Shown: one piece after another, positions 24,760-44,190 of the stretch
How positions within the stretch are numbered: position 1 is the first letter of the stretch
Layout: each line of letters starts with the position of its first letter
Assembly: GCA_963695545.1 (NCBI GenBank)
Contig: OY968796.1
Location: 2,080,001-2,144,000 of the forward strand
Length of the DNA stretch: 64,000 nt
Reading direction: 5' to 3'
From: Terriglobia bacterium
GTDB lineage: Bacteria > Acidobacteriota > Terriglobia > Acidiferrales > UBA7541
Notes under the pieces: model-generated
Databases searched by the model: none
The model's input: only the letters and a program-made list of their open reading frames with translations
What the model was told of the DNA's origin: nothing
Translations under genes and position numbers: made by a program

Positions 24760-26175
24760 GTGGGAACAGCGGCGGAGCAATTCGATTTGATTGTGATTGG
24801 TTCGGGTCCCGCGGGAGAAAAGGCCGCTGCCCAGGCTGCCTATTTCGGCAAACGAGTGGCTTTGGTCGAGCGCGGCGCGCTGGGCGGAGCGGGAATCAAT
24901 ACCGGCACGGTGCCGAGCAAGACGCTGCGCGAGTCGGCGCTCTATTTTTCGGGTTTGCGGCAGCGCGGCCTCTACGGCATCGATTATTCGTTGCGCGAAG
25001 GGCTGACGGTCGAAGGCTTTATGCATCGCAAGGACGCGGTGGTCGCCTGGGAGCGCGAGAAGATCGCGCTAAATCTCGAAGCTCATAAGGTCACGCTGAT
25101 TCGCGGAGAAGCCAGCTTTGAGGATGCGCGCACGATCTCCGCGCACGCCGAAGGCACGGAGCCGCGCATGCTGACCGCCGAGGTGATCCTGATCGCCACG
25201 GGCTCGCGCCCGCACCGCGCGCCGGAAATTCCGTACGACGACCAATTCGTTTTCGATTCCGATTCGATTCTGAAAATGGATCGCATCCCGAAGAGCATGG
25301 TGGTCGTCGGGGGTGGGGTGATTGGATGCGAGTACGCTTCGATCTTCACCGCGCTGAGCGTGCAGGTTGTTCTGGTGGATGGGCGAGACCGGCTGCTGCC
25401 GTTTCTCGATTCGGAAATTTCCGAGCGTCTGGCTGAGCGGCTCGCGGGACTCGGCTTGGAATTTATCGCGAACGAGCGCATGGCGTCGCTCGAACGCACA
25501 GCGGCGGGCGTGCGTATGACACTGAAATCGGGCAAGGTGATCGAGCGCGAAACCGCTCTATTCGCCGCGGGGCGCCGAGGCGCGGTAGAAGGTTTGCATC
25601 TCGAACGCGCGGGCTTGGAGCTGAACGCGCGCGGCACACTCGACGTCGACGCGAGCTACCAGACCGCCGTGCCGCACATTTACGCCGCGGGCGATGTGAT
25701 CGGTTTTCCGGCACTGGCCTCGACTTCGATGGAGCAGGGACGCTTGGCGATCTGCCACGCATTCAATTTCCCTTACAAGAAGCGCCTCGCGTCTACGCTG
25801 CCCATGGGAATTTACACCATCCCGGAAATTTCAGCGGTAGGCGAGAGCGAGGAAAGCTGCCGCGAAAAGGGAATTCCATGCAGCGTGGGGCGCGCGCGCT
25901 ATTCCAACAACGCGCGCGGGCAAATCACGGGCGATTCAACCGGCTTGCTGAAGCTCGTCTTTCGCCGCGACAACAAACAATTAGTCGGCGTGCACATCAT
26001 CGGCGAAAGCGCCACCGAGCTGATTCACCTGGGCTCGGCCGTGCTCGAATCCGGCGGCACAATCGATTTCTTCATTGATCTGGTTTTCAACTATCCGACG
26101 CTGTCCGAGATGTATAAGTACGCCGCGTACGACGGCCTCGGAAATCTTGCGGGGCACAAATTGCGCGAGGGTTAG
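24760..26175 (+). CDS. sthA: Soluble pyridine nucleotide transhydrogenase
   Basis: GSGPAG, GTVPSKTLRE, GGGVIGCEYA, GDVIGFPALASTSMEQGR, IYTIPEIS, FNYPTLSEMYK. Confidence 0.88.
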   Translation: MGTAAEQFDLIVIGSGPAGEKAAAQAAYFGKRVALVERGALGGAGINTGTVPSKTLRESALYFSGLRQRGLYGIDYSLREGLTVEGFMHRKDAVVAWEREKIALNLEAHKVTLIRGEASFEDARTISAHAEGTEPRMLTAEVILIATGSRPHRAPEIPYDDQFVFDSDSILKMDRIPKSMVVVGGGVIGCEYASIFTALSVQVVLVDGRDRLLPFLDSEISERLAERLAGLGLEFIANERMASLERTAAGVRMTLKSGKVIERETALFAAGRRGAVEGLHLERAGLELNARGTLDVDASYQTAVPHIYAAGDVIGFPALASTSMEQGRLAICHAFNFPYKKRLASTLPMGIYTIPEISAVGESEESCREKGIPCSVGRARYSNNARGQITGDSTGLLKLVFRRDNKQLVGVHIIGESATELIHLGSAVLESGGTIDFFIDLVFNYPTLSEMYKYAAYDGLGNLAGHKLREG

Positions 26176-26193
26176 CTGGGCGCGCGACGGCTT

Positions 26194-27756
26194 CTAGAGC
26201 GTCGGGTTGCGCGGAAATAGTTGATAGGGCAGCGTGACGCCGTCGATTGAAATTTGGTCGGCGCGAATCGCGGCGGGCGCTTCGTAGCCTGCGCCGCCGC
26301 CCGCGGCGACGTAGTCGTCCTGATCCACGCCATCGCCGCTAACGCCCAGCCCGCCGACGAGCACGCCATTCAGATAAAGCGGCACGGAGCCGGGGAAAAA
26401 AACCACGCCGCTTTGGTGCGGACCAGGCGCTTGAAAACCTTGCGTGCATGGATGCGCCGTGTCCTGCTGAAATAAATTGAAGAATGGCCCGGGGTTCGTG
26501 CCGTCGATGCCGGGCGGAAACAGCGGCTGTGCGCCGTAGCCGATGGTTCGACTGGTGACGGCGGTGCCGATCGGCACGCCTTCGAGATCCGCGGCGGTAC
26601 GCGTGGCGCTGTTGAAATAAACCATGTTGCGCGCTTTGGTCGCGGCGACATCGATGCTGAAGACGGTGGAATCGGGCATGCGGTAGAGACCGATGATCGT
26701 GCCGTCGAGATCGGCGACTGCGATGACCATTTCGGCTGCCGAATTTTCAGGGATACGAAGTACGGCGCGCGTGGTGTTGGCGGTCGCGACGGCGTTCATG
26801 ATGATTTGATTTACTTCCGACGCGGAGAGCCCGCCGAGCGGTCCGGCATTCGGCCCAACGAGATAATTCTCGGGCGGTTGCGCGGGGCTGGCGGTGGGGC
26901 CGACGAAGAACGCGCCGTCGGCGGCTCCGGTGGTTGTGCCCGCTGGCTGCGTGGTTTGGTCCACGAACGGCACGGTGATGCCGCCGATCACGACGGCGCC
27001 GGGCGGGGCCGGAGTCGGACCGAAGCCGTTCGACGTGGCCGCGGTGTAGGCGGCGAATTCGGCGACGTCGGTTGAAACGCCCGCCACGCCGATCCCGCCG
27101 ACCACGACTCCGCTTTCAAAAATCGGCACGCCGCCGGGATCGACCACCGTCGGATCGCTGTCGTAGAGATCGGCTTTGCCGGTGGCGATGCCCAGACTTG
27201 GGGAGACGCCGTCAAGCGCAGTCGGCGGCGCAATGGATTGTCCCGGCAGGAAATTCGACGAAAGCGCGCAGCCGCGATTGCTGTTTTCAATGGCGTAGAG
27301 CGGGGCGTTCGACGCTCCGGCGACGCCGGGCGGGAAATGAACGCCGCTCAAAAAACGCACGCTGCGCGAGGAAATGGGCGCCTGATCGTTGCTGAAAAAT
27401 GCGGCGGTGCGAGCGAGAGAAACCGCAAGTTCGTTTGTGTCGACCGCGGCGCCAAAATTGCCGGGCGTGGTCGCGGGCGCGGAGGGTTTTCTATAAACCG
27501 CGAGGACGCGGCCCGCGCGATCGGAAACTGCGATGACCATCGTTTCGACGTTCGCGGCTTGCGCCGCGGCCACCACGAGCGATTGAACCTGGCTGGCCGT
27601 AAGATTCGGCGATGACGCGGGAGGAGGAACCTGCGTGACGGATGGAGCGCCGGTCGCTCCGCCGCACGCTGAAAGTGCGAGCGCCGCGGCGAGCGTTAGC
27701 GCAAACGCCAGCGGGGCGCGCTGTGGACGACGGCTGCCGTGCGAAGTCTGGTTCAC
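26194..27756 (-). CDS. Lipoprotein with tandem GlcG/HbpS-like heme-binding domains
   Basis: Lipobox LSAC; two repeats IAVSDRAG..ARTA..GGVPIF..VVGGIGVAG and IAVADLDG..KAR..GSVPLY..LVGGLGVSGDGVDQDD. Start is approximate. Confidence 0.82.
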   Translation of the reverse strand: MNQTSHGSRRPQRAPLAFALTLAAALALSACGGATGAPSVTQVPPPASSPNLTASQVQSLVVAAAQAANVETMVIAVSDRAGRVLAVYRKPSAPATTPGNFGAAVDTNELAVSLARTAAFFSNDQAPISSRSVRFLSGVHFPPGVAGASNAPLYAIENSNRGCALSSNFLPGQSIAPPTALDGVSPSLGIATGKADLYDSDPTVVDPGGVPIFESGVVVGGIGVAGVSTDVAEFAAYTAATSNGFGPTPAPPGAVVIGGITVPFVDQTTQPAGTTTGAADGAFFVGPTASPAQPPENYLVGPNAGPLGGLSASEVNQIIMNAVATANTTRAVLRIPENSAAEMVIAVADLDGTIIGLYRMPDSTVFSIDVAATKARNMVYFNSATRTAADLEGVPIGTAVTSRTIGYGAQPLFPPGIDGTNPGPFFNLFQQDTAHPCTQGFQAPGPHQSGVVFFPGSVPLYLNGVLVGGLGVSGDGVDQDDYVAAGGGAGYEAPAAIRADQISIDGVTLPYQLFPRNPTL

Positions 27757-27945
27757 TGTTGTCTTGTGTACGTAACACATCGCTTGCGGGGGCTCAAGGA
27801 GCGCGGTGATAGCGAGCGCGAAAGAATGAATTGCGGCCGGTGGCACCCACCGTGTCGATTTTCGTTTCAACCGGCGGCTGGTCGAGGCAAAATCCCTGCT
27901 GTCGAAGCGGCGCCGATTTCTGAGCCGGCGTCCGAGGCGAGGCGG

Positions 27946-30240
27946 ATGCGCCGAGCATCCCTGCGAATCAAAATCGATTTGCTTTTGGCTGCGCTGGCGT
28001 TGCTCGTGGCGGCGACTGCCGCGACTGCCGCCACTGCGGCCACGCCGCGGCGCGCGAGGCATTCGCGCGGCGCGCGACATACGCATCACGCACAGCAGGC
28101 TGGCGCGCATCACGCGCAACACCCCGCGCCGCGCAAACGGCCGCGAGTTGAATCTCACCCACGACCGAAAACGAATTTCCGCGCTCTTCCGCAGCAGCAA
28201 ACTTCTACTGCCGAATTCCAAGGACAACGATTGCCGCGACAGACGGCGCCGCGTACGGCGGCGATTGAAGGCGAAGTGCGCGACGCGAGCGGGCGCGCGG
28301 TGGTTGGCGCAACGGTGCGCTTCGATTCCACGGAAGTGAACACGAGCGCGGACGGCGTTTTTCGCATACGCGATCTTGCGCCTGGAAATTATTCGCTCAC
28401 GATTGAGAGTCCGGGATACGCGGCGGAAGTGCGCTCTGATGTGTCGCTCGCGGCGGGCGATGTTTTCATTGTCGAGTTGACGCTCGCGCCGTCGGAGATG
28501 GCGAGTGCTCCGCGATCGCGATTGCCGCGGCAGCCGGAGCTTGGTCCTCCGACGCCGGCGATTGCAGTGGCGATGCTGGGTTCCTACCACGTGTTGCCGC
28601 GACGACCAGACGCCGATCCGAATTGGAGTGAGCCGCAACCTGAGTCGCTGCCGCCGGCGCAGGAAGTTTTCGCCGCGGCGGCGGACCGTTGGGACATTCC
28701 GATGCCGAATGCGCGGCGCTACGGTGACGGCGGCGAATATCCTTACGTCAAATCGCACTGGTACGATCCATTCGATCGCAACAAATTGAAGGGCGATCAG
28801 CCGATCATCGGCCAGCAAACGTTTTTGAACTTGACGGCGAAAAGCGAGACGGATGCCGACGGCCGATGTTTGCCGACGCCCACAAACGTGAGCCCGGCGC
28901 GGCCGGGCAGCAGCGAATTTTTCGGGCAGTGCGATCAGTTCGGGTTGAGCCAGACATTTTTCTTCACGGCGGATTTGTTTCACGGCGATACATCGTTTCG
29001 CCCGGTGGACTGGCGGATTCGCGTGACGCCAGCGGTTAACGTGAATTATTTGAAGGTCGAAGAGCTGGGCGTGGTGAACGTCGATCCGCGCGACGGCACT
29101 ACGCGCTTGGACGCACATTTTGGATTGCAGGAAGCGTTCGTCGAGGTGAAGCTGCACGATCTCGATTCCGATTACGATTTTGTTTCAGTGCGCGCCGGGA
29201 TCCAGCATTTTCAGAACGATTTTCTGGGATTTATTTTCGCGGACGATCAGCCCGGCGTGCGCTTTTTTGGCGATTTGCATTCGGATCGTTGGGAATACAA
29301 CGCGGCGTACTTCGATCTGCTGGAAAAGGATACGAACAGCGATCTGAATACGTTCAATGCGCGGCATCAGCAAGTGATCGTGGCCAATTTATACATGCAG
29401 GATTTCGGGCGGCCTGGTTACACCACGGAATTCAGCGTTCTCTACAATAAAGACGACGGCAATCTGCATTACGACGACAACGGATTTCTGGTGCGGCCGG
29501 CGGACATTGGCTCCGAGCGGCTGCACAATGTGCGCGCCGCGTATTTGGGCTGGACGGGCAGCGGGCACTTTGGGCGATGGAACGTGAGCCATGCGTTTTA
29601 TCAGGCGCTGGGCGAGGACGATTTCAATCCGATTGCCGGGCGGCCGGTGACCATCGACGCGCAGATGGCGGCGCTGGAGATTTCGTGGGATCGCGATTGG
29701 ATGAGAATTCGCGCGTCGGCGTTTTACGCGTCGGGCGACGCGAATCCGCGCGATGGGCGCGCGACCGGTTTCGATGCGATCGTCGATCAGCCGGATTTCG
29801 CGGGCGGCGATTTCAGTTTCTGGAATCGCGAAGGCATTCCGCTTACCGGCGCAAACGTTTTCCTGACCACGCCGGGCAGTTTGCTTCCGGATTTGCGCTC
29901 GAGCAAATTCGAGGGGCAGGCGAATTTCGTGAATCCGGGAATTTTTCTGGCGAATGGCGGCGCGGATTTCAATTTGACGACCAAACTGAAGGGTGTGGTG
30001 AATGTGAATTTTCTGCGATTTGAGGATACCTCGCCGCTTGAATTCGTGCTATTTCAAACGCCCATTCGCAATACGATCGGCGAGGATTACAGTCTGGGAG
30101 TTGTCTATCGGCCGCCGCTGACGGAAAACATTGTGGTCACGGGCGGCGCCGCGGCGCTCGATCCGGGCGCGGGGTTTCGCGATATTTACACGGGCCACTC
30201 GCTTTTTTCTCTCTTTGGCAATGTTCGCGTTCAATTCTAA
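27946..30240 (+). CDS. Outer-membrane beta-barrel protein with carboxypeptidase-regulatory-like N-domain
   Basis: Signal peptide, [28 protein letters not shown], alternating beta-strands, C-terminal VRVQF. Confidence 0.8.
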
Positions 30241-30259
30241 TTCGGGGCGGCGCCGCGGC

Positions 30260-33200
30260 GTGGCTCGCGTAAGGCGGGCTGCACCGTGCGCGGCGTTAGC
30301 CGCGATGTGCGCTTTTCTGGTGGCGGGCGCGTACGTCGAGGGCGCGAGCGGTCGTCAGGGCGGCGACGCGGCTGCGGAATCGCGATTGCTGCAGCAGACC
30401 GAAGACGACGTGGCGCGAAAAAGCGCGGGCTGCGTTTCGTGCCACACGCAAACCGACGAGCCCACCATGCACGCGACAGGTACGGTGCGATTGGGTTGCA
30501 CGGATTGCCACGGCGGGCGCGCGGATTTGCTGCTGCCGGCTGGAGCGCAACCGGGTTCGGCGGCATACGAGCAGGCTAAGCGCACGGCGCACGTTTTGCC
30601 GCGCGATTCGCAGGATGCCGATCGCTCGGCCGAACCTGTGCGCGCGTACGCGGCTTGGCTGCACGAAACCACGGAATACGTGCGCTTCGTGAATCCGGGA
30701 GATTTGCGCGTCGCAGCGCAAACGTGCGGCGAGGCGGGGTGCCACGCTTCGGTGGTGCGCAATGTTGCGACGAGCATGATGACTACCGGCGGAATGCTGT
30801 GGGGCGCGGCGCTTTACAACAACGGCGCGTATCCTTACAAGGACTTGCGATTCGGCGAAAGTTACGCCGCCGACGGCACGCCGCAGACGGTGCGCACGAT
30901 TCCTCCGCCGACGCCGGAGGAAACGCGCGAGAAGGGAATTATCGCGGAGGTGACGCCGCTCGAACGCTGGGAAATTTCGCAGCCGGGCAACGTGCTGCGC
31001 GTTTTCGAGCGCGGCGGCGGGAAAAAAGGCGAAATCGGGTTGCCCTCGCCCGATGAGGAACCCGGCAAGCCGGACGACAAATTGAGCAGCCGCGGATTCG
31101 GCACACAACTGCGCACCGATCCGGTTTTTCTGGGACTGCAGAAGACGCGGCTGCTCGATCCGATGCTTTCGATGCCGGGGACGAACGATCAGCCGGGCGA
31201 TTATCGCGCGAGTGGCTGCACGGCGTGCCATGTGATTTACGCGAACGACCGCTCGCCGGAGCATTCGGCGCAATACGCGCAGTACGGCAACATGGGATAC
31301 AGCGCGTCGAATGATCCGACGATTCCGCACAATGAATCCGGACACGCAATTCGCCATGTTTTCACGCGCTCGATTCCATCGAGCCAGTGCATGGTGTGCC
31401 ATATTCATCCGGGCACGAATATGGTGGCCACGTATTTTGGGTACACGTGGTGGGACAACGAATCCGACGGTAAGGAGATGTATCCGGCGGCGCAGCGAAA
31501 TCCGAGCGACGAGCAGCGCTTTGAAGTTGCCACGCGAAATCCCGAAGGAGCGGCGGCGCGCGGGTTGTGGGGCGACGTGAATTTCTTGTCGCAGACGGGC
31601 AGCGCAGAATTCAACGCCAAGCTGAAGCAAACGCAGTTCGCGGATTTCCATAGTCACGGGTGGTTGTTTCGCGCGGTGTACGCGCGCGATCGGCAGGGAC
31701 GCTTGCTGGACGCGGGCGGAAACGTTGTGCCGTTCGACGATCCGCTGAAGTTCAGCAAGGCCGTGCACCTGGAGGACATTCATCTTGAAAAAGGAATGCA
31801 GTGCGTGGATTGCCATTTCGAGCAAGACGCGCATGGCACCGGTTCGCTGTACGGCGAATCGCGCGCGGCGGTCGAGCTTGATTGCGTGGATTGCCACGGG
31901 ACAATTTCCGGGCGCGCGTCGCTGGTGACGTCGGGCCCGGCGGCGCCGCCGGGCGGAACACATCTCGAGGGATTGCGCACACCGTGGGGGCAGCGGCGAT
32001 TTGAATGGCGCGAGGGACGGCTCTATCAGCGATCGATGATGGACCCGCACGAGGAATGGGAGATCGTACAGACGCTCGATTCGATCACGCCGGGCAACGC
32101 GCACTACAACGAAAAATCGCGCTTGGCGAAAACGCTGCGGACCGATGGCGTCACCTGGGGCAATGTTCCGTCGGACGCGGCGCTGCTGGCGCACGCGAAC
32201 AGCCGCATGGCTTGCTACACCTGCCACACTTCGTGGACGCCGAATTGTTTCGGTTGCCATTTGCAGATGACGGCCAATCAGCGGCGGCCGATGCTGCACA
32301 ACGAGGGTTTGGTGACGCGCAACTGGACTTCTTACAATTTTCAAGTGCTGCGCGACGACGGTTACATGCTCGGCGTGGACGGCACGGTGACTGGGCATCG
32401 GATCGCGCCGGCGCGGTCGTCGTGCGCGGTGCTGGTCAGCTCGCAGAACGCGAATCGCGAATGGCTTTACTACACGCAGCAAACAGTTTCGGCGCCGGGC
32501 TTTAGTGGCGAGGCGTTTTCGACGTTTGTGCCGCACACGGTGCGCGCGCGAGAGACCAAGACATGCACGGATTGCCATGTTTCTGCCGCGGGCGACAACA
32601 ACGCGTGGATGGCAATGCTGCTGCTTCAGGGCACGAACTTCGTGAATTACATGGGGCGCTATGTTTACGTGGCGGACGGGGCGAAAGGTTTTTCGGCCGT
32701 GGTTACGGCTGAGCACGATGAGCCGGAGGCCGTGTTCGGCAGCGATCTGCAGCGCATGGCGTATCCGGAAGATTATCGGCAGCACGTGGCGCGCGGCGGG
32801 AAGCTGACCACGGCGTTTGGTCACGCTGGGAACGTGCTCGATCTGCAATTGCGCGGCGAATATCTTTATGCGGCGCTGGGCGCGGGCGGATTCCGCGTCT
32901 ACGATGTCGCGAACATCGACAACAAGGGATTCTCCGAGCGCACGGTGACCGCCCCGGTTTCTCCGCTGGGCCAGCGACTGTACGTGAAAACGAAATACGC
33001 AACCGCGGTGGCCACGCCGACTACGCTGGCCGTCGATCCACTGCGCGCGCAGCATCCGGAAAACGAAGAGCAGAAAATTCATTTGATGTACGGATTTCTT
33101 TACGTGACCGATCGAGAAGAAGGCTTGATCGTTGTCGGCAACCCGGATTTGGAGTCGAAAAGCCCTGGCGTCGGCACGCTGCTCAATGGAAATCCTGAGG

Positions 33201-34081
33201 ACAATTTCATCGGCCGCGCCGTGACGTTCAACCCCGATGGCATTCTGCACGGCGCGCGGCGTATCACGATCGCTGGCACGTACGCTTACATTTTGTGCGA
33301 TCGCGGGTTGGTGGTTGTGGATCTGGATAATCCGCTCGAGCCGCGCGTCACGGCGGAAATCGGTGCGCCGGCGCTCGTCGATCCGCAGGGCGTGGCGGTG
33401 CAATTCCGGTATGCGTTCGTCGTTGATCGCGAGGGATTGAAAGTTCTCGACGTGACCGACCTTGCGCATCCGCGCGTTGTGCCTGGCGCAGATGTGGCGC
33501 TGGAGGACGCGCGCAACGTCACGGTTTCGCGCACGTACGCTTATGTGCCGGCGGGCCGACACGGAATCGCGATCGTGGACGTGACGCGGCCGGAGCATCC
33601 GCGCTTGAATCAAACTTTTACCGCCGATGGCGCGATCAACGATGCGCGCGACGTGAAGATCGGCGCCGTGGCTGGGGGCGTTTTTGCGTACGTGGCCGAC
33701 GGCGCGAACGGTCTGCGAATTCTGCAGGTGCTTTCGCCGGAAGATTCGCCCGACTCGTATGGATTTTCGCCGCCGCTGCGGCCCAAGCTGATCGCGACGT
33801 ATCGAACGCCGGGCGCGGCGCTGGCAGTGTCTCGCGGGATCGATCGCGATCGGGCGGTGGATGAAAGCGGCAATCAGCTCGCCGTCTTCGGGCGACGCGG
33901 CGCGCGACCTCTCAATCGCGAAGAAGCCGAGGGACTTTATTTGCGCGGCAGTCAGCTTTACACGGTTACGGATTCGCCGCCGAGCCAGCCTCTCGCGCTG
34001 GGTTCAACAGCCGCATCGAGCGGATCGGCCGCGGCCGGGCTTGAGAATTGGGTCGATCGATTGCGCGCGCATTTGCGTTAG
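30260..34081 (+). CDS. Multiheme cytochrome c (9 CxxCH + 1 CX4CH) fused to an LVIVD-repeat beta-propeller
   Basis: CVSCH, CTDCH, CGEAGCH, CTACH, CMVCH, CVDCH twice, CYTCH, CFGCH, CTDCH; then YVYVADG, FRVYDV, LVVVDL, LKVLDV, IAIVDV repeats. Start is approximate. Confidence 0.9.
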
Positions 34082-34094
34082 TTCAGGGAGCGGC

Positions 34095-34868
34095 ATGGGA
34101 ATTGTCCGCAAAATCCAGGGCGCGTTCGGCGGCGGCGCGATTCCGCAGACCATTTGCTGGGGAACGCTCTCACAGGCGGAGCTTCTGATTCCGTGGCAGA
34201 ACAAAAATACGCGGCGGTGGGCGCACAGATGGGTACGGCGCCATTTCTCGGAGTTGCCGCTGGGCGCGTTGGATATTGTGGACGCGGGATCGGGCACATC
34301 GAATCGTCTGCTTGATTGGTATCGGCCGCGCGTGCGGCACGCTTATTTGCTGGATTTTCTGGTCGAGCCACACGAAGAGGGCAATTCGAGTTTCGTTCGC
34401 GCCGATCTCGAAAAGGGCATGCCGGTTCCCGACGCTTGCGCGGATGTGGTTACGAGCGTTAGCAGCGTCGAGCATCTTTCCGAGGCCGGGCAGATGCTGT
34501 TTCTTAGCGAAGCGGCGCGGGTGTTGCGTCCGGGCGGACGCGTGATTGCGACTTTCAGTTACGTCTTCGCGTTGGATGCGCAGTCATTGAAAATACTTTC
34601 GAGCAATCCCGTGCTGGCGGGGAATGGATTCGCGATTTCGGCGCGGCCAAACTTGCGCAGAATGCTCGAACGGGCGCCGGAACTTGCGCCTCCAGTCGCG
34701 CCCGTGTGGAAGAATTTTCCCGGCTTCGAGGGATTCGCGGAGAGCGCGATTCTTGCCGATCGCGACATTCTCTTGGACCCGATATTTTCCGGTGATCCCG
34801 GCGCGAAGGAAGTGAATGCGCTGGGGAAACGCTACGGAGAAATCGGCATTTATCTGGTGAAGAAATAG
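34095..34868 (+). CDS. Class I SAM-dependent methyltransferase
   Basis: IVDAGSG, ADL...P, DVVTSVSSVEHL, EAARVLRPGG; GGGAG RBS. Confidence 0.85.
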   Translation: MGIVRKIQGAFGGGAIPQTICWGTLSQAELLIPWQNKNTRRWAHRWVRRHFSELPLGALDIVDAGSGTSNRLLDWYRPRVRHAYLLDFLVEPHEEGNSSFVRADLEKGMPVPDACADVVTSVSSVEHLSEAGQMLFLSEAARVLRPGGRVIATFSYVFALDAQSLKILSSNPVLAGNGFAISARPNLRRMLERAPELAPPVAPVWKNFPGFEGFAESAILADRDILLDPIFSGDPGAKEVNALGKRYGEIGIYLVKK

Positions 34869-34923
34869 GTTCCGGCGGGTCGGCCGCCAAAAATCAGCTC
34901 GATTACAAGCCGGCGCTTGCATT

Positions 34924-36309
34924 TCAGCCGCCCCCGCCGGACGCTTTCCCCGGCGCGCGAATCAGGCTCGACAATAATTCGTCAATCGATGCGTGCCCCG
35001 GCGCATATTTGCGCAGCGTGGGATCGTGATAGGTGTGGCACTCAAAGCAGCGCGCTTCGGCGGCGCGCGGTCCTTCGTGGTGGCATTGGCGGCACGTCGT
35101 GATTCCGGGGAGCAGAATGTCCGAGCTCTGCTGGCTCGTGCGCGCCGCGGTGTGACAACTCTCGCAGGTGACGAGCTGGTGCTGCGCGTGATCGAACTTC
35201 GCGAGCGGGAAAAAACGAAGCGTGACATTCGATGGCGCTACGCTGGGCAACGTGGCGTTGAGCGTCGCTAGATCTGGCAGCGTCATGACCGGCGGCACGG
35301 CGCTTGCTTGCTCTTGGCCCGGAGCGAAATTTAGCGTGTGACATTCTTTGCAGGTTTTGCGCCACAGAAGATCCTCGGCTTCCGCGGTGTGCTCGGCGAC
35401 CCATTCGGGCGGCGTCAGCAGGCGATAAACGGCGGGAACTGGGCGGCGCGGCAGATCGCGATTTGGTTGGCGCAATTCGCGCAGCTCGGCCGGGTGCGCG
35501 GCGATGTAGGTTTGGAATTTTGCGATGATGAACGCCTGAATTCGCTGCGGCGTATCGTGCCGGACTTGATCTGTGAAGCGTTTGTCGAATTGCAACGTGT
35601 GGCACGACGCGCAAGTTGCAGCATAAGTTGCCGGCTGCATTGTCGCGCCCATCGAGCGTGGCTCGATCGCAGTCCCTGCGCTCGCGGCGTTAGCGAGCCG
35701 GTGGCAATCGCCGCAGACGAGCTGCACGTGGCCGCGTGGGCCGGTGAGATTCGCCTGCATGTGCAGTGCGTGATCGAACTTGATCGTTGTCGGATCGGGC
35801 TCCTCAGATCGCAGCACCGCAAACTCGGGGTGATCGCCCGAAAAACTTTCGATGTGCGCGGCGTAATGCGCCGGCCCGGCGCGCGTTTCGAGATTGGCGT
35901 GGCACTGCGTGCAGCTTGCGTCGCTCACCGCGGCGAGGCGAATCGCACCGCGGTGATCAGCGTGGCAGCTCGCGCAGGAGGGCGTGAAAGTCTGAGACGC
36001 CTGATGGATCGGGCCATCGTGGCAATCCAGGCAAGCGTGATCGGAAACGTTTCGCACGAAGAATAAGCCGCCGGCGGTGACGTGGCACGCGCTGCAGCGA
36101 TTTGAAAACACGGCGTGCGCGGCCGAGAGTTTTCCCGCGGAATACACCGCGTTGTCTCGTCGCGCGGCGTGCCAACCGAGCCAGGCAAGCGCGAGGACGA
36201 GCGCCGCAAGCGAGAGGCGGAATCTCCACTGGCGCAGCGGGCGCGGCTCGCGGAAATAATTGAGATCGATCCGCTGCGCGAGCTTTTTTGTTGTGCGCGA
36301 GCGCGGCAA
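34924..36309 (-). CDS. Membrane-anchored decaheme cytochrome c (c3-like)
   Basis: N-terminal TM helix; CSACH, CLDCH, CASCH, CTQCH, CGDCH, CASCH, CKECH, CESCH, CRQCH, CFECH; FDHxxH motifs. Confidence 0.92.
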   Translation of the reverse strand: MPRSRTTKKLAQRIDLNYFREPRPLRQWRFRLSLAALVLALAWLGWHAARRDNAVYSAGKLSAAHAVFSNRCSACHVTAGGLFFVRNVSDHACLDCHDGPIHQASQTFTPSCASCHADHRGAIRLAAVSDASCTQCHANLETRAGPAHYAAHIESFSGDHPEFAVLRSEEPDPTTIKFDHALHMQANLTGPRGHVQLVCGDCHRLANAASAGTAIEPRSMGATMQPATYAATCASCHTLQFDKRFTDQVRHDTPQRIQAFIIAKFQTYIAAHPAELRELRQPNRDLPRRPVPAVYRLLTPPEWVAEHTAEAEDLLWRKTCKECHTLNFAPGQEQASAVPPVMTLPDLATLNATLPSVAPSNVTLRFFPLAKFDHAQHQLVTCESCHTAARTSQQSSDILLPGITTCRQCHHEGPRAAEARCFECHTYHDPTLRKYAPGHASIDELLSSLIRAPGKASGGGG

Positions 36310-36318
36310 AGATTGCTC

Positions 36319-37182
36319 CTAATATCGCAGCGCCACGAAGGCGTGGGCTGCGCCAAGCAAAATCAGCGCAATCGAAAGCGGCACGTGAATCAGAAGCCAG
36401 CCGTGCAGCCAGCGGTGCAGGTGCGCCTGGCGCGTCAGTTGGCGCGCTTCCTCGCAAATATTTTCGAGATCGTCGACCGCCGCGTGCAGGGGCGGCGGCA
36501 CGAGAAGCCGCACGTTGGAAAATGCGCGTTCGGCTTGCGAGCGATCGGCCAAGGGATTCGGTCCGGGCGCGCGCTCGAGATACGGCCGGATTTCGCGGTC
36601 GTAGAACGCGACGAGGGGCGCGGCAGGTGCTGCGGTCGTCGCGGCTGCGCCTTCTTCGTCGGGATTTTCGGCCACGGTGATCGCGCTGGCGCGCGCGATT
36701 TGTTCGGCGGCTTCGGCGCGAAGTTGCGCACGGACGTGCTCGATTTCTTCGTAGATAGTCTCAAGCGGGACATCGCGCGTCATCGTGGCGGGCATGAAAT
36801 GTTGTAAGACCGCGCCGAAGATTCCGCTGGCGATCACGATTACAAGCAGCCAGAGCAGCATGATGGTGAGCGGACCGCCCGCGTGGAACCCGGCGTGAAG
36901 CAAAATCAGCGGGAGACTCAGCAAGCCGAGCCACAGATGGCCCCGCATCCAGGTTTGCGCGCGGCCCAGACGCCACACGGGAACTTTTTTCCGCGCGCCG
37001 AGCAGGCCGGCGAAAATCATGAACGCGAAGCCGACGACTCCAAACGCCAATCCGAGCGGCGTGCCGCCCATCGGTTCCGCCGCGGAGGCCGCGGGCCGGC
37101 CGAGCGCATACAAGACGCACGCGGCGCCGAGAATTACGCACGACGCGATGAGCCACCCTGTGTGCGTGCGGTCAATTCGCAT
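36319..37182 (-). CDS. Polytopic membrane protein with intramembrane His (possible cytochrome b)
   Basis: About 5-6 hydrophobic helices; WMRGHLWLG, LLHAG, WLLIHVPLS, AAH. Confidence 0.75.
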   Translation of the reverse strand: MRIDRTHTGWLIASCVILGAACVLYALGRPAASAAEPMGGTPLGLAFGVVGFAFMIFAGLLGARKKVPVWRLGRAQTWMRGHLWLGLLSLPLILLHAGFHAGGPLTIMLLWLLVIVIASGIFGAVLQHFMPATMTRDVPLETIYEEIEHVRAQLRAEAAEQIARASAITVAENPDEEGAAATTAAPAAPLVAFYDREIRPYLERAPGPNPLADRSQAERAFSNVRLLVPPPLHAAVDDLENICEEARQLTRQAHLHRWLHGWLLIHVPLSIALILLGAAHAFVALRY

Positions 37183-37200
37183 GCTGAGGCGCCGCCATTT

Positions 37201-39375
37201 TCATTTCGCGATTTTTCCGTCGCGGCTCACCGGCGCGCCGACAAGCGAACCAAAAAATTGCCGCGGCTCGACGCGATGTGCGGCGTCGTGTGGGCAGGCA
37301 TAGACACAACTCGGCTCGGCATGGTCGGTGCAGAGATCGCAGGAAGTGGCTTTTTTGCGGACCACGGCGCGCTTGCGGCCGGGATGATCGGGATCGTCGG
37401 CCTGCACGGTGAACGGATGCAAATTAATATTGCCGTACGGGCAATTCTGGGCGCAGAGGCCACAGCCGATGCACCAATCCTCGATGATCACTTCGAGCGA
37501 ATTGCGGCGGCGAATCGATCCCACCGGACAGCCCACCATGCAGAGAGGATCGCGGCACTGCCGGCAGGAAGTAGCCACCAAATATTTATCGAAGCGCAAT
37601 CCTTCGCGGATCAGGCGCGTGACGCCGTCGTGCGCATCGGCGCAGGCGTTCACGCAGGCGTCGCAGCGCGTGCAGCGCTCGAGATCGAGAACGAGCAAGC
37701 TCTGCGCTTCCATCAGACCTTGCGCGAGAAAACTTTCGAGCGGCACGCTGCCCAGCACCGCCATGCGTTCCTGATTGGCCTGCTGACGCTCCTGCGCGAC
37801 GGCTTCGAGTCCCTGGCGCACGGAAGGGAATCGTTCGACCATGGCGCGGAATTCGTCGCCTGGGATGCGCACCACCTCAGCGTGATCGAGAGCCGTGCAC
37901 GTGGCCGTGCGCGCGCTTCCGCCGAGCAGGCCGATTTCGCCGAAATAATCGCCGCGCGAAAGATAGGCCAGCACGAGTTCGCCGCCGGCGTGCCGCTCGG
38001 AAACTTTCACGAATCCCAGGCGCACCAGATAGAAACTGTCGGCTGGTTCGCCTTGGCGGCAAATCACCTGGCCGGGGGCGAAACTCGAAAGCTCGACGCG
38101 CTCGCGCAGGCGATCGAGGAATTCCTTGTCGAGCGCGCGGAATAATGGAACGTTGCGCAAATGATCTTCAAGCGCGCGCTGGCGATAGGTGCGATCGAGC
38201 TGCGCACGCAGAGTTTTGTTCTTGCGCATGGTGTCCAGAACGTTGCGCAGCATTTCGAGCACCGTGCAATCGGTTTCGGCGCGCACGGTGGCCGAACGCG
38301 GATAGAAATTCATGCAGGTCATTTCGCCGAAAAGATCGCTGGGGCCGAGCTCGGCGACGGGGTGGTCGTAATCGAGATCGACGGGCGCGTCGATGGGAAT
38401 CGAGCGGCGCGTGACGTCTTCCGCGCGGTGATCGCCGGCCCGGCCAACCAGGAAACTGCCGAGGCGGCTGAAAAATCCGCGCTCACCGCCCGAAGTTTTC
38501 ACGTGCGCCATCGGGCTTGAGATCGAGACGCTGACTTTGCCTTCGAGGATGTAAAAAGCCGTCGAACCGAAATCGCCTTCGCGGCAGACGATTTCACCTT
38601 TGCGGAAACGGCGCTTGATCACCGCGTTTTTGTTCAGCTCGAGGAACGTGCCGGAAACGTTGTGAAACACTGGCAGAGCGAGCAACTCTTCGGTCGTTGC
38701 GCTTTCCGCACCATGCTCTGCGCCGAGCGCTGTGCCAACCACGAACTTGTTTGTCAGCGCGCCTGTTGGGCACGAGACCATGCATTCGCCGCACGAAACG
38801 CACGTGGATTCGCCCATCGGCGCGCCCGCGTCGAAGGCGATGTCGGTTGCGCCGCCCTTGCCCATGCGCGCCAGCACGAAATTGCCGCGGATATCGCCGC
38901 AGCCGCGGATGCAGCGATCGCAGAGAATGCAGGCATCGTGCGCCACGGCGATCGCAGGAGAAGAATCGTCTTGCGGCCGCGCCGCGCGGCGCGGGAATCG
39001 CGACGCGCCGATTCCGGCCGCGCGCGCCAAGGTTTCGAGTTCGCAATCGCCCGACTGCTGCTGCCGCGGGCAGGGCGAAGGATGGTCGGCCAACAGCAAT
39101 TCGAGCAGCGTGCCGCGCGCCGCGGTAACGCGCTCGGAGGACGTCGTGACGACCATGCCCGGCTCCGCCGGCCGCACGCACGACGCCGCGAAAACACGTG
39201 CGCCGACGTCGACGACGCACACGCGGCACACGCCGACCGGCGTTTCATTCTGCTGATGGCACAGCGTGGGAATCGCGATGCCGTTCATGCGCGCCGCGTC
39301 GAAGACGGTCGTACCGGGCGCGACGGCGATCTTGCGCCCGTCGATTGTGAGCTCGATCAGGGAAGCGGCGTTCAT
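37201..39375 (-). CDS. Fe-S/cNMP fusion: NuoG-like N-domain + two cNMP-binding domains + DmsB-like 4x[4Fe-4S] domain
   Basis: PTLCH..GVCRVC..ASC; CILCDRC, CVSCGEC; FGEM..PRSATV and FGEI..RTATC; CTRCDAC, CRQC..C, CIGCGLC, CDLC..C. ATGA overlap with the upstream gene. Confidence 0.9.
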   Translation of the reverse strand: MNAASLIELTIDGRKIAVAPGTTVFDAARMNGIAIPTLCHQQNETPVGVCRVCVVDVGARVFAASCVRPAEPGMVVTTSSERVTAARGTLLELLLADHPSPCPRQQQSGDCELETLARAAGIGASRFPRRAARPQDDSSPAIAVAHDACILCDRCIRGCGDIRGNFVLARMGKGGATDIAFDAGAPMGESTCVSCGECMVSCPTGALTNKFVVGTALGAEHGAESATTEELLALPVFHNVSGTFLELNKNAVIKRRFRKGEIVCREGDFGSTAFYILEGKVSVSISSPMAHVKTSGGERGFFSRLGSFLVGRAGDHRAEDVTRRSIPIDAPVDLDYDHPVAELGPSDLFGEMTCMNFYPRSATVRAETDCTVLEMLRNVLDTMRKNKTLRAQLDRTYRQRALEDHLRNVPLFRALDKEFLDRLRERVELSSFAPGQVICRQGEPADSFYLVRLGFVKVSERHAGGELVLAYLSRGDYFGEIGLLGGSARTATCTALDHAEVVRIPGDEFRAMVERFPSVRQGLEAVAQERQQANQERMAVLGSVPLESFLAQGLMEAQSLLVLDLERCTRCDACVNACADAHDGVTRLIREGLRFDKYLVATSCRQCRDPLCMVGCPVGSIRRRNSLEVIIEDWCIGCGLCAQNCPYGNINLHPFTVQADDPDHPGRKRAVVRKKATSCDLCTDHAEPSCVYACPHDAAHRVEPRQFFGSLVGAPVSRDGKIAK

Positions 39376-41084
39376 GCGATTTTTGCTCGCGGCGCGCTGC
39401 CCTTCGCGTCGGGAAAGCACACGCCCGCCGGGCACTCGCGGCGCGTCAAGTGAACTTCGACTTCTTCGCGGAAATGTTTGAGTACGGATTCAATCGGCGC
39501 GGGCACGATTTGCCCGAGCCCGCAAATTGATGTAAGCCGCATGGCTTCGGAAAGTTGGCGCACGAGTTCGAGATCAGCGGCCCAATCGGTTCGCGCGCCC
39601 TCGGTCCAGCGCGTCAGCAGGTCGGTCATTTTCTGCGAGCCCACGCGGCACGGAACGCATTTCCCGCACGACTCATTGCGGAAAAAACGCACGGAGTTCA
39701 GCGCCATGTCCAGCATGCAGGTGCGATCGTCGCAGACCACGATCGCGCCGGAGCCGAGCATCGAGCCGGCCGCGGCCAAGGATTTGAAATCGAGCGGCAC
39801 ATCGGCCATCGACGCGGGCAAATATCCCGACGACGGCCCCGACGGCGCAAATGCTTTGAGCGGCCGGCCGCCGAGCACGCCGCCGGCGTAACGGAAAATT
39901 AATTCAGAAATCGGCGTGCCCATGGGCACTTCAAAAACGCCGGGCCGTTCGACGCGTCCGCTGACGCCGACGAATTTCAAACCGGCCGCACCATTCGGGC
40001 CGCCCAAGCCGGCCGATTTGTACCAATCGACGCCGCGCGCCAAAATTTGCGGCACGTTGGCGAATGTTTCGACGTTGTTGATCACGGTCGGCTTGTTCCA
40101 GAGGCCCTGGGCCACCGGAAACGGCGGCTTATTGCGCGGCTCGGCGCGCTTGCCTTCGATGGCTTCGAGCAGCGCGCTTTCTTCGCCGCAAATGTATCCG
40201 CCGGGGCTGACGAAAATTTCGAGATCGAAATCGAGATCCGTGCCGAGCACGCCGCGGCCGATAAGTTTCTCGCGGCGGCAGCGCGCGAGTTCCTCTGCGA
40301 GAATGTGCTCTTGCTCGTCGTATTCGTGGCGAATATAGAGGATGCCTTTTCGCGCGCCGGTGATGAGTCCGGCGAGAACCATGCCCTCGATCACGAGGTA
40401 CGGCAGATTGGTGAGCAGAAAGCGATCTTTAATCGTGCCGGGTTCGCTTTCGTCCGCGTTGCACACGACATATTTCTCCGCGCCGACCGCGCGGCGCACG
40501 AGCGACCATTTCATTTCCGTGGGAAAACCCGCGCCGCCCATGCCGCGCAGGTTGCTGGCCTTCAGCGTGGCAAGCGCGCCATCCCAATCGCGCGTGCGCG
40601 CGAGAGTGCGCAGACACGCGTATTTTTCGGCGCCCGGGTAAGGATCGGAGGCGCAATCCGAACGTCGCGCCGCGCGCGGCGTTTCGGGCAGCTCCGCGCC
40701 CGCGAGCGCACAACGCACAAGCGCGTCGGCCTCAGGTTCGGTGACGCCGCTATAAATGCGATCGTTGATCGAAAGGGCGGGCGCGGCGTCACAGCGGCCG
40801 AGGCACGACGCGTCGCGGATGGAGACTTCCCGCGGCGATGCGCCCGCGAACCGCCGCTCGAGCGAAGATTTCAGTTCGCATGCCCCGCGCAAATGGCAGG
40901 ACATATCGCCGCACACTTTCACTTCGGCGCGCGCCGGCGGCGCGAGATGAAAATGGGGATAGAAGCTGGCGACGCCGTGCAGCCGGCTGATGGGAACGTC
41001 GATGCGCGCGGCCAGCGCCGCAAGTTCCTCGGCTGAAATGTAGCCGTGCTCTCGCTCGATCGCCTTCAGCTCTTCAAAGATCAA
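39372..41084 (-). CDS. NuoE-NuoF fusion (NAD(P)H dehydrogenase/diaphorase module)
   Basis: VASFYPHF, CGDMSC..CLGRC (2Fe-2S); LRGMGGAGFP, NADESEPGT, YICGEESAL, ESCGKCVPCR..C (FMN/4Fe-4S); TTG start with GGGAG RBS. Confidence 0.92.
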   Translation of the reverse strand: MIFEELKAIEREHGYISAEELAALAARIDVPISRLHGVASFYPHFHLAPPARAEVKVCGDMSCHLRGACELKSSLERRFAGASPREVSIRDASCLGRCDAAPALSINDRIYSGVTEPEADALVRCALAGAELPETPRAARRSDCASDPYPGAEKYACLRTLARTRDWDGALATLKASNLRGMGGAGFPTEMKWSLVRRAVGAEKYVVCNADESEPGTIKDRFLLTNLPYLVIEGMVLAGLITGARKGILYIRHEYDEQEHILAEELARCRREKLIGRGVLGTDLDFDLEIFVSPGGYICGEESALLEAIEGKRAEPRNKPPFPVAQGLWNKPTVINNVETFANVPQILARGVDWYKSAGLGGPNGAAGLKFVGVSGRVERPGVFEVPMGTPISELIFRYAGGVLGGRPLKAFAPSGPSSGYLPASMADVPLDFKSLAAAGSMLGSGAIVVCDDRTCMLDMALNSVRFFRNESCGKCVPCRVGSQKMTDLLTRWTEGARTDWAADLELVRQLSEAMRLTSICGLGQIVPAPIESVLKHFREEVEVHLTRRECPAGVCFPDAKGSAPRAKIA

Positions 41085-41352
41085 AGCCGCGCTCCCGGCG
41101 CTCCGAAAACTGTCGGGGCTGCCGTACCGCGCCGACGAGGACCAGAGCAAAACGGTATAACAAACCGCGGGCCGCGGGTCTACGGGCGTCGCCGGTATTT
41201 GTTGCGAGGCCGCGAAAGAGGTAACCGCCCCGTTGATCTCCGCGAAGGCCGCGTTGACTTCGCGCGGCACGCAAAGTATAAGCAAACGACAACGCGTCGT
41301 GCAGTCCGCGGAAATTTTCGGCCGCGCGCGCCGCATTCTGGCTGAGAATTGA

Positions 41353-42771
41353 ATGAAAACACGTCCCGACGGCAAGCGCCCGCTCAATTTTCATTCGACC
41401 TTGCTCGCCGCCGCGGTTTCCGTCTTCTCCGTCGCGGCCCCGCTGCTTCTAAGCACCGTGCTCTGCGCCGACGGTTCAAGCAACGCGCCGCGTCCTGCAG
41501 GCGCCACAGTTGAGCCCTCGAAATATGTCGGGCCCGGCGGCTGCGCCGCGACGAGTTGTCACGGCAGCGTGAAACCGCGCGCCGACACTCGAATTTTCCA
41601 GAACGAATACAGCATCTGGGTCGTGCAGGACAAGCATTCGCGCGCCTACACGGCACTGACCTCGCCCATCGGCGAGCGCATCGGGCGAATTCTTGGCATC
41701 GGCAAATCCGAAGAAGCGCCGAAATGTCTCGCGTGCCACGCGCTCGACGTTGCGCCCGAAGCGCGCGCCAAAACTTTCGATTTGAGCGATGGCGTGAGCT
41801 GCGAGAGTTGCCACGGGCCCGCTTCGGCGTGGCTCGGTCCGCACACCACGCGCGGCTGGACGCACGCGCAATCGGTGGCCGCGGGAATGTACGACACGCG
41901 CGATCTGGTGCTGCGCACCGAGAAATGTTTGACGTGTCATCTGGGGACGCAGGAAAAATTCGTGGATCACGAAATGCTCGCCGCCGGCCATCCCGATCTT
42001 TATTTCGAGCTCGATTCGTTTTCCGCCGTGATGCCGCGCCACTGGAAGACGCCGCGCGAATCCGCGCCGGGCGTGCCCGAAACCGGAGCGGACGATCCGT
42101 GGTTCGGCGTGCGCGATTGGGCTACGGGGCAAGCCGTGCAGTTGCGCGCGGCGCTCGATCGCGTGGCCTGGCGCGCGCACGGACCGAACTGGCCGGAATT
42201 TTCGGAGCTGCAATGTTTCTCATGCCACCACGATTTAACGCCGCCGGAACAGAGCTGGCGCCAGGAGCGCGGCTATCCCGGCCGCCGCCCCGGTGATCCG
42301 CCGTGGAACGCGTCGCGCTACGCGGTGTTCGGCATTCTGGCGCACGAAGTCGATGGGCCAACCGCTACGGAGCTCGACGCGCACATGACGGAACTCGCGA
42401 AGCTCATGAGCGCGCTCAATCCGGACCGTGACGCCGTGGCGTCCGCTGCCGCAAGCGCGCGCGTGCTGGCTGATCGCCTCGTCGCGCGCATCCAGGCGCA
42501 GCCCTACGATCAGGCGAGGACCGCGCGCCTGCTGCTCGAAATATCCGGCCACGCCGAGGAAATTTCAGCGCAGGGCGAGCGCGCCGCCGAACAAGCGGCT
42601 ATGGCGCTCGATTCGCTTTTCATCGCATCGAGCCGAAACGCCGCACCGGCCAACGCCGCGGAAATCCGCGCCGCGATCAACGGCCTGTTTCAATTGCTCG
42701 AGAATCCCTCCGCATACGATCCAAACACCTTCGCCGCGCAAATGACGAAAGTGAACGCACTGCTGCGCTGA
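41353..42771 (+). CDS. Secreted multiheme cytochrome, c554/c552-like (4 CxxCH + 1 CX4CH)
   Basis: Signal peptide; YVGPGGCAATSCH, KHSRAY, CLACH, GVSCESCHGP, CLTCH, CFSCH; helical C-terminal domain. Confidence 0.9.
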   Translation: MKTRPDGKRPLNFHSTLLAAAVSVFSVAAPLLLSTVLCADGSSNAPRPAGATVEPSKYVGPGGCAATSCHGSVKPRADTRIFQNEYSIWVVQDKHSRAYTALTSPIGERIGRILGIGKSEEAPKCLACHALDVAPEARAKTFDLSDGVSCESCHGPASAWLGPHTTRGWTHAQSVAAGMYDTRDLVLRTEKCLTCHLGTQEKFVDHEMLAAGHPDLYFELDSFSAVMPRHWKTPRESAPGVPETGADDPWFGVRDWATGQAVQLRAALDRVAWRAHGPNWPEFSELQCFSCHHDLTPPEQSWRQERGYPGRRPGDPPWNASRYAVFGILAHEVDGPTATELDAHMTELAKLMSALNPDRDAVASAAASARVLADRLVARIQAQPYDQARTARLLLEISGHAEEISAQGERAAEQAAMALDSLFIASSRNAAPANAAEIRAAINGLFQLLENPSAYDPNTFAAQMTKVNALLR

Positions 42772-43973: not shown

Positions 43974-44173
43974 CTTCGCTCCTTCAGGAAAACAAATTGA
44001 GGCGATCCAGTATAACCGAACCTGCCGCCCGTTGAGTTTGATGAGGTTGGCGAGACCGCCGGGACCCGGAACACCCGCGCGAACGCGGCACTTCGGCCAC
44101 AACGTGTCCCGGGCCACACGCAACGCCGACGACGCGAAACGCGCAAAACATTGGCAAAACGGCGATTTTCCGC

Positions 44174-44190
44174 TTGGCGCGCGGCGTGCT
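44174..44190 (+). promoter_or_regulatory. Putative sigma54 -24/-12 promoter
   Basis: TTGGCGCG-CGGCG-TGCT: GG-N10-GC spacing, upstream of two small ORFs. Confidence 0.5.

Follow-up and report, generated by a model that had tools for sequence, protein, structure and literature searches.

A cluster of ten genes at positions 24760 to 42771 of a 64,000-nucleotide stretch from a Terriglobia bacterium (Acidobacteriota; GCA_963695545.1, contig OY968796.1, positions 2,080,001 to 2,144,000 of the forward strand; this whole stretch is the window below) belongs to a real, widespread and modular redox system. Its best reading is an NAD(P)H-linked electron chain that crosses the inner membrane without a Nuo membrane arm. 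This agrees with the core of an earlier note made from the letters of the window, and is supported by the exchange of input flavoproteins among related loci, by gene fusions in relatives and by co-occurrence across genomes. The inner half of the system has been named twice in print, as PCC4 (He, Barco, Emerson and Roden 2017, PMC5566968) and as part of ptdABCDEFG (Elbon et al., bioRxiv 10.1101/2023.11.21.568154); these and the other papers are cited from the parts of their text that were accessible. The NuoEF/NuoG-N input and the outer module set the present cluster apart from these. To the whole model, a regulated NADH reductase chain across the inner membrane to periplasmic cytochromes with a small solute as end point, we assign a probability of roughly 0.5.

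Clustering and conservation of the core genes

All ten open reading frames (ORFs) were verified, as was the total of 23 CxxCH and 2 CX4CH heme motifs counted earlier. The domain assignments of the earlier note were likewise upheld for SthA, the NuoE and NuoF fusion, the combination of NuoG-N, cyclic-nucleotide-binding (cNMP) and ferredoxin domains, HbpS/GlcG and LVIVD. The genes lie on both strands in four transcription units: SthA (plus strand); GlcG (minus), convergent with SthA; the barrel, 10-heme and methyltransferase genes (plus); and the NuoEF, FeS/cNMP, membrane-protein and decaheme genes (minus), with the c554-like cytochrome gene (plus) separate. A one-operon reading was therefore dropped. 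What stands of the proposed ten-gene set is a clustered core of eight conserved genes, to which SthA is an accessory. The class I S-adenosylmethionine (SAM) methyltransferase (34095..34868, plus strand, PF08241) is a passenger insertion, discarded as a member of the system because it had no counterpart in any of the fetched loci.

The clustering is far beyond chance and recurs across Acidobacteriota and in Sphingobium; named homologues come from Candidatus Acidiferrales and other Acidobacteriota. A close membrane-protein homologue is present in 8/24 genomes of the same family, and six of these eight hold all eight core genes together (one with GlcG cut by a contig end, one with frame breaks). 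The other two are a short contig with four genes and a genome (G020) in which the barrel and 10-heme genes lie about 120 kb off. A scan of GTDB gave at least 593 confirmed relatives of the 10-heme protein. Within 10 kb flanks of the best 80 of these loci, many of them cut by contig ends, we counted the barrel in 75, GlcG in 57, the decaheme in 30, the membrane protein in 29, c554 in 20, SthA in 20 and NuoEF in 19.

In a wider, evenly drawn sample of 301 Acidobacteriota genomes, in which kin are not independent, the 10-heme protein occurs in 31. The membrane-protein family is found in every one of these 31 genomes, compared with 33/270 of the rest, and the two genes are no more than 20 kb apart in 20 of the 31. 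The co-occurrence across genomes that the earlier note proposed as a check is thus seen in this phylum and, beyond it, in Sphingobium. Plasmid pMSHV of Sphingobium herbicidovorans carries seven of the eight core genes (c554, GlcG, barrel, 10-heme, decaheme, membrane protein and cNMP/Fe-S protein) and a TrxR-like FAD domain where NuoEF would be. On twelve Sphingobium replicons there are matches to the membrane protein and, along most of the sequence, to the 10-heme protein; a Sphingopyxis plasmid has the outer four genes close by and no others of the set.

Some loci show local irregularities. Frame breaks interrupt the NuoEF, FeS/cNMP, membrane-protein and 10-heme genes in L025/L026 (G001) and several loci from metagenome-assembled genomes (MAGs), in the scattered pattern that assembly errors would give. 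A metallophosphoesterase gene lies between the two modules in one Sphingobium locus (L042:18942-19790); it could be a cyclic-nucleotide phosphodiesterase, perhaps of a CpdA-like kind.

The heme motifs are distributed as 4 CxxCH and 1 CX4CH in the c554-like protein, 9 CxxCH and 1 CX4CH in the large cytochrome and 10 CxxCH in the decaheme. Both CX4CH motifs look like genuine heme sites: the motif of the c554-like protein is kept in 26/26 homologues, and the site in the large cytochrome reads CX4CH in 71, CX2CH in 22 and CX3CH in 1 of 94.

A probable NAD(P)H-fed input with predicted cyclic-nucleotide-binding domains

The gene at 39372..41084 (minus strand, probable TTG start at 41084) encodes a NuoE-NuoF fusion, predicted to be a non-bifurcating NADH:FMN input. 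It scores 442 bits, below the NuoF cut-off of 559, and is 38% identical to NuoF of the genome's own complex I, whose nuo locus lies elsewhere. The marks given for the bifurcating HydB-type are A/E-x-M, a Phe near the FMN, GGPSG and extra Fe-S domains (Losey 2020, PMC7311640, accessible text). Among 22 homologues of the fusion we found T-x-K in 22, Tyr in 21 and GGPSG in 0, and by those criteria its NuoF is predicted to be non-bifurcating and not of the HydB type. Assignment to complex I was abandoned, as the protein falls below the family cut-off, the N5 motif is incomplete, a membrane arm is absent and the genome has a separate nuo locus. The earlier note saw no hydrogenase or molybdoenzyme partner at the locus, and this extends to the whole genome (93.8% complete), in which we found no NiFe or FeFe hydrogenase and no molybdoenzyme other than NuoG; a partnership with a hydrogenase or formate dehydrogenase was dropped for this reason.

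Next in the unit, the FeS/cNMP protein (37201..39375, minus strand) joins a NuoG/HoxU-like N-terminal Fe-S domain to two cyclic-nucleotide-binding domains and a 16-Cys ferredoxin, and is PtdE-like apart from the extra input domain. In the phosphate-binding cassette, Glu and Arg are intact in 35/35 sequences for domain A and in 29/35 for domain B. Both domains are predicted to bind cyclic nucleotides, and the chain is probably under second-messenger control. The N5-type His-ligated Fe-S site (residues 98-111) reads H-x3-C-x8-C in 20/20 homologues, the middle Cys being gone, and the genome's true NuoG has the full N5 motif; this cluster may be altered or lost in the FeS/cNMP protein.

A CHASE2 adenylate/guanylate cyclase gene, often with a FecR-domain gene, lies near 7/80 loci (L060, L066, L074, L080, L082, L086, L087) and is a possible source of the cyclic nucleotide. 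In the genome that contains the window, genes are present for two class III cyclases, for two heme-copper oxidase subunits I and for cytochrome c assembly.

Across loci, the input position is taken by three unrelated NAD(P)H flavoprotein folds: NuoEF (19 of the best 80 of at least 593 loci), a TrxR-like protein (Sphingobium L042, L131-L134, L147) and an FNR-like protein (L144, L139). Since the input flavoprotein swaps among these folds, NAD(P)H is the likely cytoplasmic partner. Relatives fuse cNMP, ferredoxin and membrane-protein domains in one arrangement and FHA, 8-heme, ferredoxin and TrxR domains in another, which argues that the inner parts belong together. Among loci L129, L136-L138 and L140-L142 there are versions with both kinds of fusion and with extra 4-, 8- and 9-heme cytochromes.

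The soluble transhydrogenase SthA (24760..26175, plus strand; NCBIfam NF003585, 574.6 bits vs a cut-off of 465) likely supplies NADH from NADPH. It lies near the 10-heme gene in 20/53 Terriglobia-type loci vs 0/27 others, at differing positions. A second SthA paralogue in the genome has an unrelated context and was set aside. Genes resembling those for glucose-6-phosphate (G6P) dehydrogenase, 6-phosphogluconate dehydrogenase and transketolase, recognised from their N-termini, are found near 7, 5 and 5 of the 80 loci (L065, L066, L074, L085-L088 and L096 for such NADPH-generating neighbours).

Predicted passage through the inner membrane

The inner-membrane protein (36319..37182, minus strand) belongs to the family of the PCC4 inner-membrane protein (IMP) and PtdF. 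It has five hydrophobic helices, two WX3HX13H motifs and the sequence SGIFG; His82, 96, 266 and 280 are conserved, and the HX13H motifs fall on the third and fifth transmembrane (TM) helices, which is the placing seen in ferric reductase-like (FRD) cytochromes b. An AlphaFold2 (AF2) model shows five membrane helices at a pLDDT of 93.7. In the family members examined, both WX3HX13H motifs are present in 54/54 and SGXXG in 47/54. The protein matches no Pfam family and has no Foldseek match at E<=0.001, and VIA-align returned just generic helical bundles. As these fold searches were uninformative, we infer from the motifs that it is a di-heme cytochrome b, which we put forward as a prediction.

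Its neighbour is a PtdG-like decaheme cytochrome c (34924..36309, minus strand) with 10 CxxCH motifs, 39 amino acids (aa) per heme and 11 conserved extra His, likely anchored in the inner membrane and of the bis-His wire type. The exported c554-like cytochrome (41353..42771, plus strand, PF13435; 4 CxxCH and the CX4CH) has a helical C-terminus and is PtdD-like.

The outer module and its likely role

A predicted outer-membrane beta-barrel (27946..30240, plus strand), with a signal peptide, an N-terminal carboxypeptidase-regulatory-like domain and a terminal Phe, is encoded upstream of the 10-heme gene in 73/73 loci having upstream DNA. The family libraries gave no MtrB/PioB match, and a sequence search with the barrel profile gave no match in the Protein Data Bank (PDB). 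Several results weakly suggest an AlgE-like channel: Alginate_exp (PF13372) is matched by 8/38 barrel members at E<=0.5 (best E 3.9e-5), the ESM Atlas places the barrel features in an alginate-export cluster (0.95), and the UniRef names of the Sphingobium homologues are AlgE-type. Apparent barrel-cytochrome fusions in L110 and L144 were discarded, the extensions being out-of-frame reads of the barrel gene.

The 10-heme gene (30221..34081, plus strand) encodes an exported cytochrome (9 CxxCH and the CX4CH) fused to a predicted 7-bladed LVIVD beta-propeller. The propeller model aligns with 1l0q at Z 28.2 (rmsd 2.3, 273 aligned), and the heme region is modelled at low confidence. The protein is 47% identical to its Sphingobium homologue over 1294 columns. 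It carries 79 residues per heme (39 in the decaheme) and 15 conserved His outside the motifs, and it has a partial match to ExtM and weak matches to octaheme nitrite reductase. Because of this low heme density, the extra His and the two sets of matches, an enzyme appears to suit the protein better than a wire.

A predicted lipoprotein (26194..27780, minus strand; start uncertain, lipobox Cys codon at 27666) completes the module, with two DUF336/GlcG-HbpS domains (PF03928, in two stretches). Its PDB matches are EfgA and PduOC, and it shares the fold family of HbpS, PduOC and EfgA while differing from them in its tandem domains and lipoprotein form. In domain 2 the equivalents of EfgA K57, S114 and D121 are kept in 47/47, 46/46 and 46/46 non-gap rows of a 50-row alignment, and the domain appears to have an intact EfgA-type pocket, with no ligand implied. 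The heme ligand of PduOC is His18 in helix 1 (PMC4923194, accessible part). That position is not conserved here, where any His in the helix occurs in 2/50 sequences for domain 1 and 9/50 for domain 2; one other His and two Cys are invariant.

The earlier note read the cluster as an MtrAB-like wire through the outer membrane, a porin-cytochrome conduit in which the barrel would lead the NADH-fed chain out to the cell surface, with Fe(III), humic substances or electrodes as acceptors. Like MtrCAB, MtoAB and PioAB, the locus has a barrel gene directly beside a gene for a ten-heme cytochrome; Mtr systems draw their electrons from the quinone pool, where this locus has an NAD(P)H flavoprotein of its own. 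The constant adjacency of the two genes in the 73 loci, the wire-like decaheme, the soil Acidobacteriota hosts and the published treatment, as far as accessible, of both PCC4 and ptd as porin-cytochrome systems would all suit a conduit. However, the barrel has no MtrB/PioB or PDB match and some likeness to AlgE channels, and its crude count of about 19 amphipathic segments compares with 26 strands in MtrB (bioRxiv 2022.05.06.490989). The cytochrome beside it has 79 aa per heme, and the wire-like decaheme belongs instead to the inner-membrane unit. The cluster is also carried by Sphingobium species. These are aerobes. Such a wire across the outer membrane is not supported so far and we consider it unlikely, although it is the strongest competitor of a chain whose end point, as we think probable, is a small soluble molecule close to the outer membrane.

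Relation to PCC4, ptd and other redox systems

The earlier note called the system uncharacterised. This fails for the inner module in so far as it is already named, being homologous by our comparisons to PCC4 and ptdD-G; it holds in that PCC4 and ptd are experimentally uncharacterised in the accessible accounts. For the barrel, 10-heme/LVIVD and DUF336 module, and for the NuoEF version, we found no published description in a literature that left out most subscription papers. PCC4 is described as a porin, 4-, 5- and 10-heme cytochromes, an Fe-S protein and a protein of the inner membrane that carries SGXXG and a pair of WX3HX13H motifs (PMC5566968), and the function of ptdABCDEFG is stated to be unknown (bioRxiv 10.1101/2023.11.21.568154). 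In the accessible text the two appear to be the same kind of cluster.

We compared the window with 20 membrane-protein loci picked from 64 matching genomes, two of which, L130 and L135, have the ptd layout; the ptd reference sequences are thus proteins of these two loci, assigned to the ptd type in this analysis, and not the published ones. The L130 pentaheme matches the T. tepidum c552 structure 5ZE8 at 2e-11, the homologue named for PtdA by Elbon et al. (bioRxiv 10.1101/2023.11.21.568154); PtdA is a pentaheme that has a beta-sandwich. The likenesses lie in the inner half: the five TM helices, paired WX3HX13H motifs and SGXXG of the membrane protein; a decaheme profile that matches the L130/L135 decahemes at E 2.8e-35 and 1.6e-37; a c554-like profile that matches PtdD-like proteins at E 1e-19 to 1e-23, with the CX4CH as fifth site in the window; and a cNMP protein with 4Fe-4S clusters whose ferredoxin domain is 44-48% identical to those of L130/L135. 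With PCC4 the locus also shares an Fe-S gene upstream of the membrane-protein gene and the presence of an outer-membrane barrel.

In contrast, the FeS/cNMP protein has a NuoG-N domain that PtdE does not, the window locus has no TrxR- or FNR-like gene, and NuoEF replaces PtdC. The window cytochromes have no 5ZE8 match, hhalign giving a 37-column heme-motif match alone, and the barrel has no hmmsearch match at E<1 and an hhalign probability of 0.1 against the two porins of L130/L135. PtdA- and PtdB-like proteins were found in 0 of the best 80 of at least 593 10-heme loci, and the 10-heme protein has no match in the two ptd genomes. Compared with PCC4, the window shows no 5-heme homologue, another barrel, the added 10-heme/propeller protein and DUF336 lipoprotein, the NuoEF/NuoG-N input and SthA. 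By these comparisons the locus is PCC4/ptd-like in its inner half and lacks three defining features, and the outer module (barrel, 10-heme/propeller and tandem DUF336 lipoprotein) has no detectable homology to the PtdA/PtdB set. A quick tree places the ptd membrane proteins together with their counterparts from the LVIVD-type loci L110, L144 and L145 (SH-aLRT 96), which suggests that the same inner module can be combined with either of the two outer modules.

The PCC4 model has electrons moving inward: the cytochromes would oxidise a periplasmic or external donor (Fe(II) or a sulfur or nitrogen compound), and the membrane protein would pass the electrons to quinone or NAD+. PCC4 comes from the genomes of Fe(II) oxidisers; He et al. 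proposed a cytochrome b that acts on quinone as the role of the membrane protein and modelled the flow toward quinone (PMC5566968), and ptd genes are reported from Nitrospirales (bioRxiv 10.1101/2023.11.21.568154), both as far as the accessible text goes. If the electrons ended on quinone, the cytoplasmic NAD(P)H flavoprotein and the ferredoxin, both conserved, would have no evident role, and many relatives have the ferredoxin and the membrane protein in one fused chain. The reversibility of heme wires and diaphorases speaks for inward flow. Yet the input is predicted to be non-bifurcating and a pumping arm is absent, and NAD+ reduction from outside through such an input would need a very low-potential donor. 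We regard inward flow as improbable, more so than the conduit.

Other known systems share single parts with the cluster. PCC3 loci have the same membrane-protein motifs in the accessible text of He 2017, and PCC3-like loci also have a ferredoxin-TrxR flavoprotein; they differ in having repeat cytochromes of 23 to 38 hemes and an unrelated type of barrel, and no cNMP domain was seen in them. Our model would work as the FRE/NOX/MsrQ enzymes do: a flavin domain takes up NAD(P)H, two hemes, each held by a His pair, span the membrane, and a switch responds to a ligand, through an EF-hand in some NOX and to cNMP here. These enzymes differ in that the window membrane protein has no Pfam match and in the added Fe-S relay and c-type cytochromes. 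Complex I NuoEFG and the Hox diaphorase have the same NuoE, NuoF and NuoG-N domains with FMN and Fe-S motifs, whereas the window proteins fall below the cut-offs, lack one Cys of N5 and have neither a hydrogenase nor a membrane arm.

L130 (G212) and L135 (G050), both canonical ptd/PCC4-type clusters, come from Acidobacteriota, which the accessible published accounts do not list among the phyla that carry them; in both, the PtdD-like protein is duplicated to 8 hemes. L035, L036, L038 and L039, from the same family as the window, hold PCC3-like clusters in which cytochromes of 22 to 38 hemes go with a barrel-like gene, the membrane protein and a flavoprotein of the ferredoxin-TrxR type. A weak PtdA-like match elsewhere in the window's genome has an unrelated context and was dropped.

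Proposed mechanism

In the path that we propose, NADH would reduce the FMN of NuoF; the electrons would then run along the Fe-S clusters of NuoE/F and of the NuoG-like domain into the ferredoxin domain with its four clusters, and from there to the two b hemes of the membrane protein, the anchored decaheme, the c554-like carrier and the 10-heme/propeller protein. Binding of a cyclic nucleotide to the two domains between the input clusters and the ferredoxin would open the path, and SthA would turn NADPH into NADH for the NADH-type input. Least certain is the far end, where the AlgE-like barrel may admit a substrate, the DUF336 lipoprotein may bind or sense it and the 10-heme protein may be the terminal enzyme. 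An NAD(P)H-to-periplasm inner chain is the firmest part of this scheme and we hold it to be very probable. Outward flow, the default for a chain that lacks a pumping arm and whose input is predicted to be non-bifurcating, is likely in our view, if somewhat less so. A need for a cNMP switch fits such a direction, since outward flow would dissipate the membrane potential.

Several points weigh against this proposal. The two halves lie on different contigs in 11/31 genomes and about 120 kb apart in G020. The membrane-protein family is proposed to be quinone-active in the accessible text of He 2017 (PMC5566968). Heme b binding, cNMP binding and all protein contacts are at the level of prediction, and the association with SthA is confounded with lineage. 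At the outer end, Alginate_exp was matched by 2/15 members of a second barrel set, both below the cut-off, and the window's own barrel has no Pfam barrel match. The nitrite-reductase matches cover heme-motif stretches alone, and the catalytic CxxCK heme is absent from the 10-heme protein. The EfgA triad is highly conserved in DUF336 proteins generally (PMC8153426, accessible part) and so names no substrate.

A signalling relay, in which the chain would report NADH or envelope redox state with the cNMP, FHA and DUF336 domains as sensory parts, draws on the two cNMP domains, the FHA domains on decahemes and flavoproteins of relatives, the CHASE2 cyclase near 7/80 loci and the sensor roles of HbpS and EfgA (PMC8153426), but it is the least probable of the alternatives: a sensor would hardly call for as many cofactors as 25 c hemes and, by prediction, about ten Fe-S clusters, and the conserved core has no output domain (kinase, DNA-binding or cyclase).

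Implications

If the proposed chain is correct, a second messenger would control electron transfer straight from NADH to the periplasm, which would be new to bioenergetics, and the inward, quinone-linked reading of PCC4 given in the accessible literature would no longer hold. More tentatively, and short of even odds, PCC3, PCC4/ptd and this cluster may be variants within a single modular superfamily of trans-envelope reductases that draw on NAD(P)H and use no quinone, a bacterial, cNMP-switched counterpart of NADPH oxidase built from Fe-S/heme wires, which here would end in a 10-heme/propeller enzyme with its own outer-membrane channel and a lipoprotein that binds a ligand. Such a superfamily would imply an unknown envelope redox reaction in about a tenth of the sampled Acidobacteriota and in many sphingomonads. 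The 10-heme/propeller protein is a candidate new multiheme enzyme, conserved at 47% identity between Acidobacteriota and Sphingobium and with a heme region that has no solved relative. Cultured Sphingobium species with seven of the eight core genes and a TrxR-like input make the question open to knockout.

Regulatory motifs and flanking genes

Upstream of the c554-like gene we noted by eye a sigma70-like promoter motif (TTGAC-N-TATAAG, 17-base spacer; 41254..41282, plus strand). Visual inspection showed it in many of the 24 NuoEF/c554 intergenic regions compared, and a strict scan did not report it. No CRP, FNR, Fur or sigma54 box was conserved across these 24 regions in a scan with consensus patterns, which gave just two weak CRP-like matches and one weak FNR-like match.

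The genes that flank the cluster (window positions 17937-24701 and 42828-50755) are ordinary: a nucleotide pyrophosphatase/phosphodiesterase, MoaA, a GH63-like hydrolase, an M50 and CBS protease, a family 5 solute-binding protein, a HAMP kinase and a sigma54 response regulator. The MoaA, GH63 and M50 genes border the cluster in some close relatives also, and DUF4331 and TPR genes recur beside Pyrinomonadaceae-type loci. Elsewhere in the genome there are six more multiheme ORFs with 5-10 CxxCH each (G000:C1 1223058, 2634741, 2638999, 2739842, 3349410 and 4049178).

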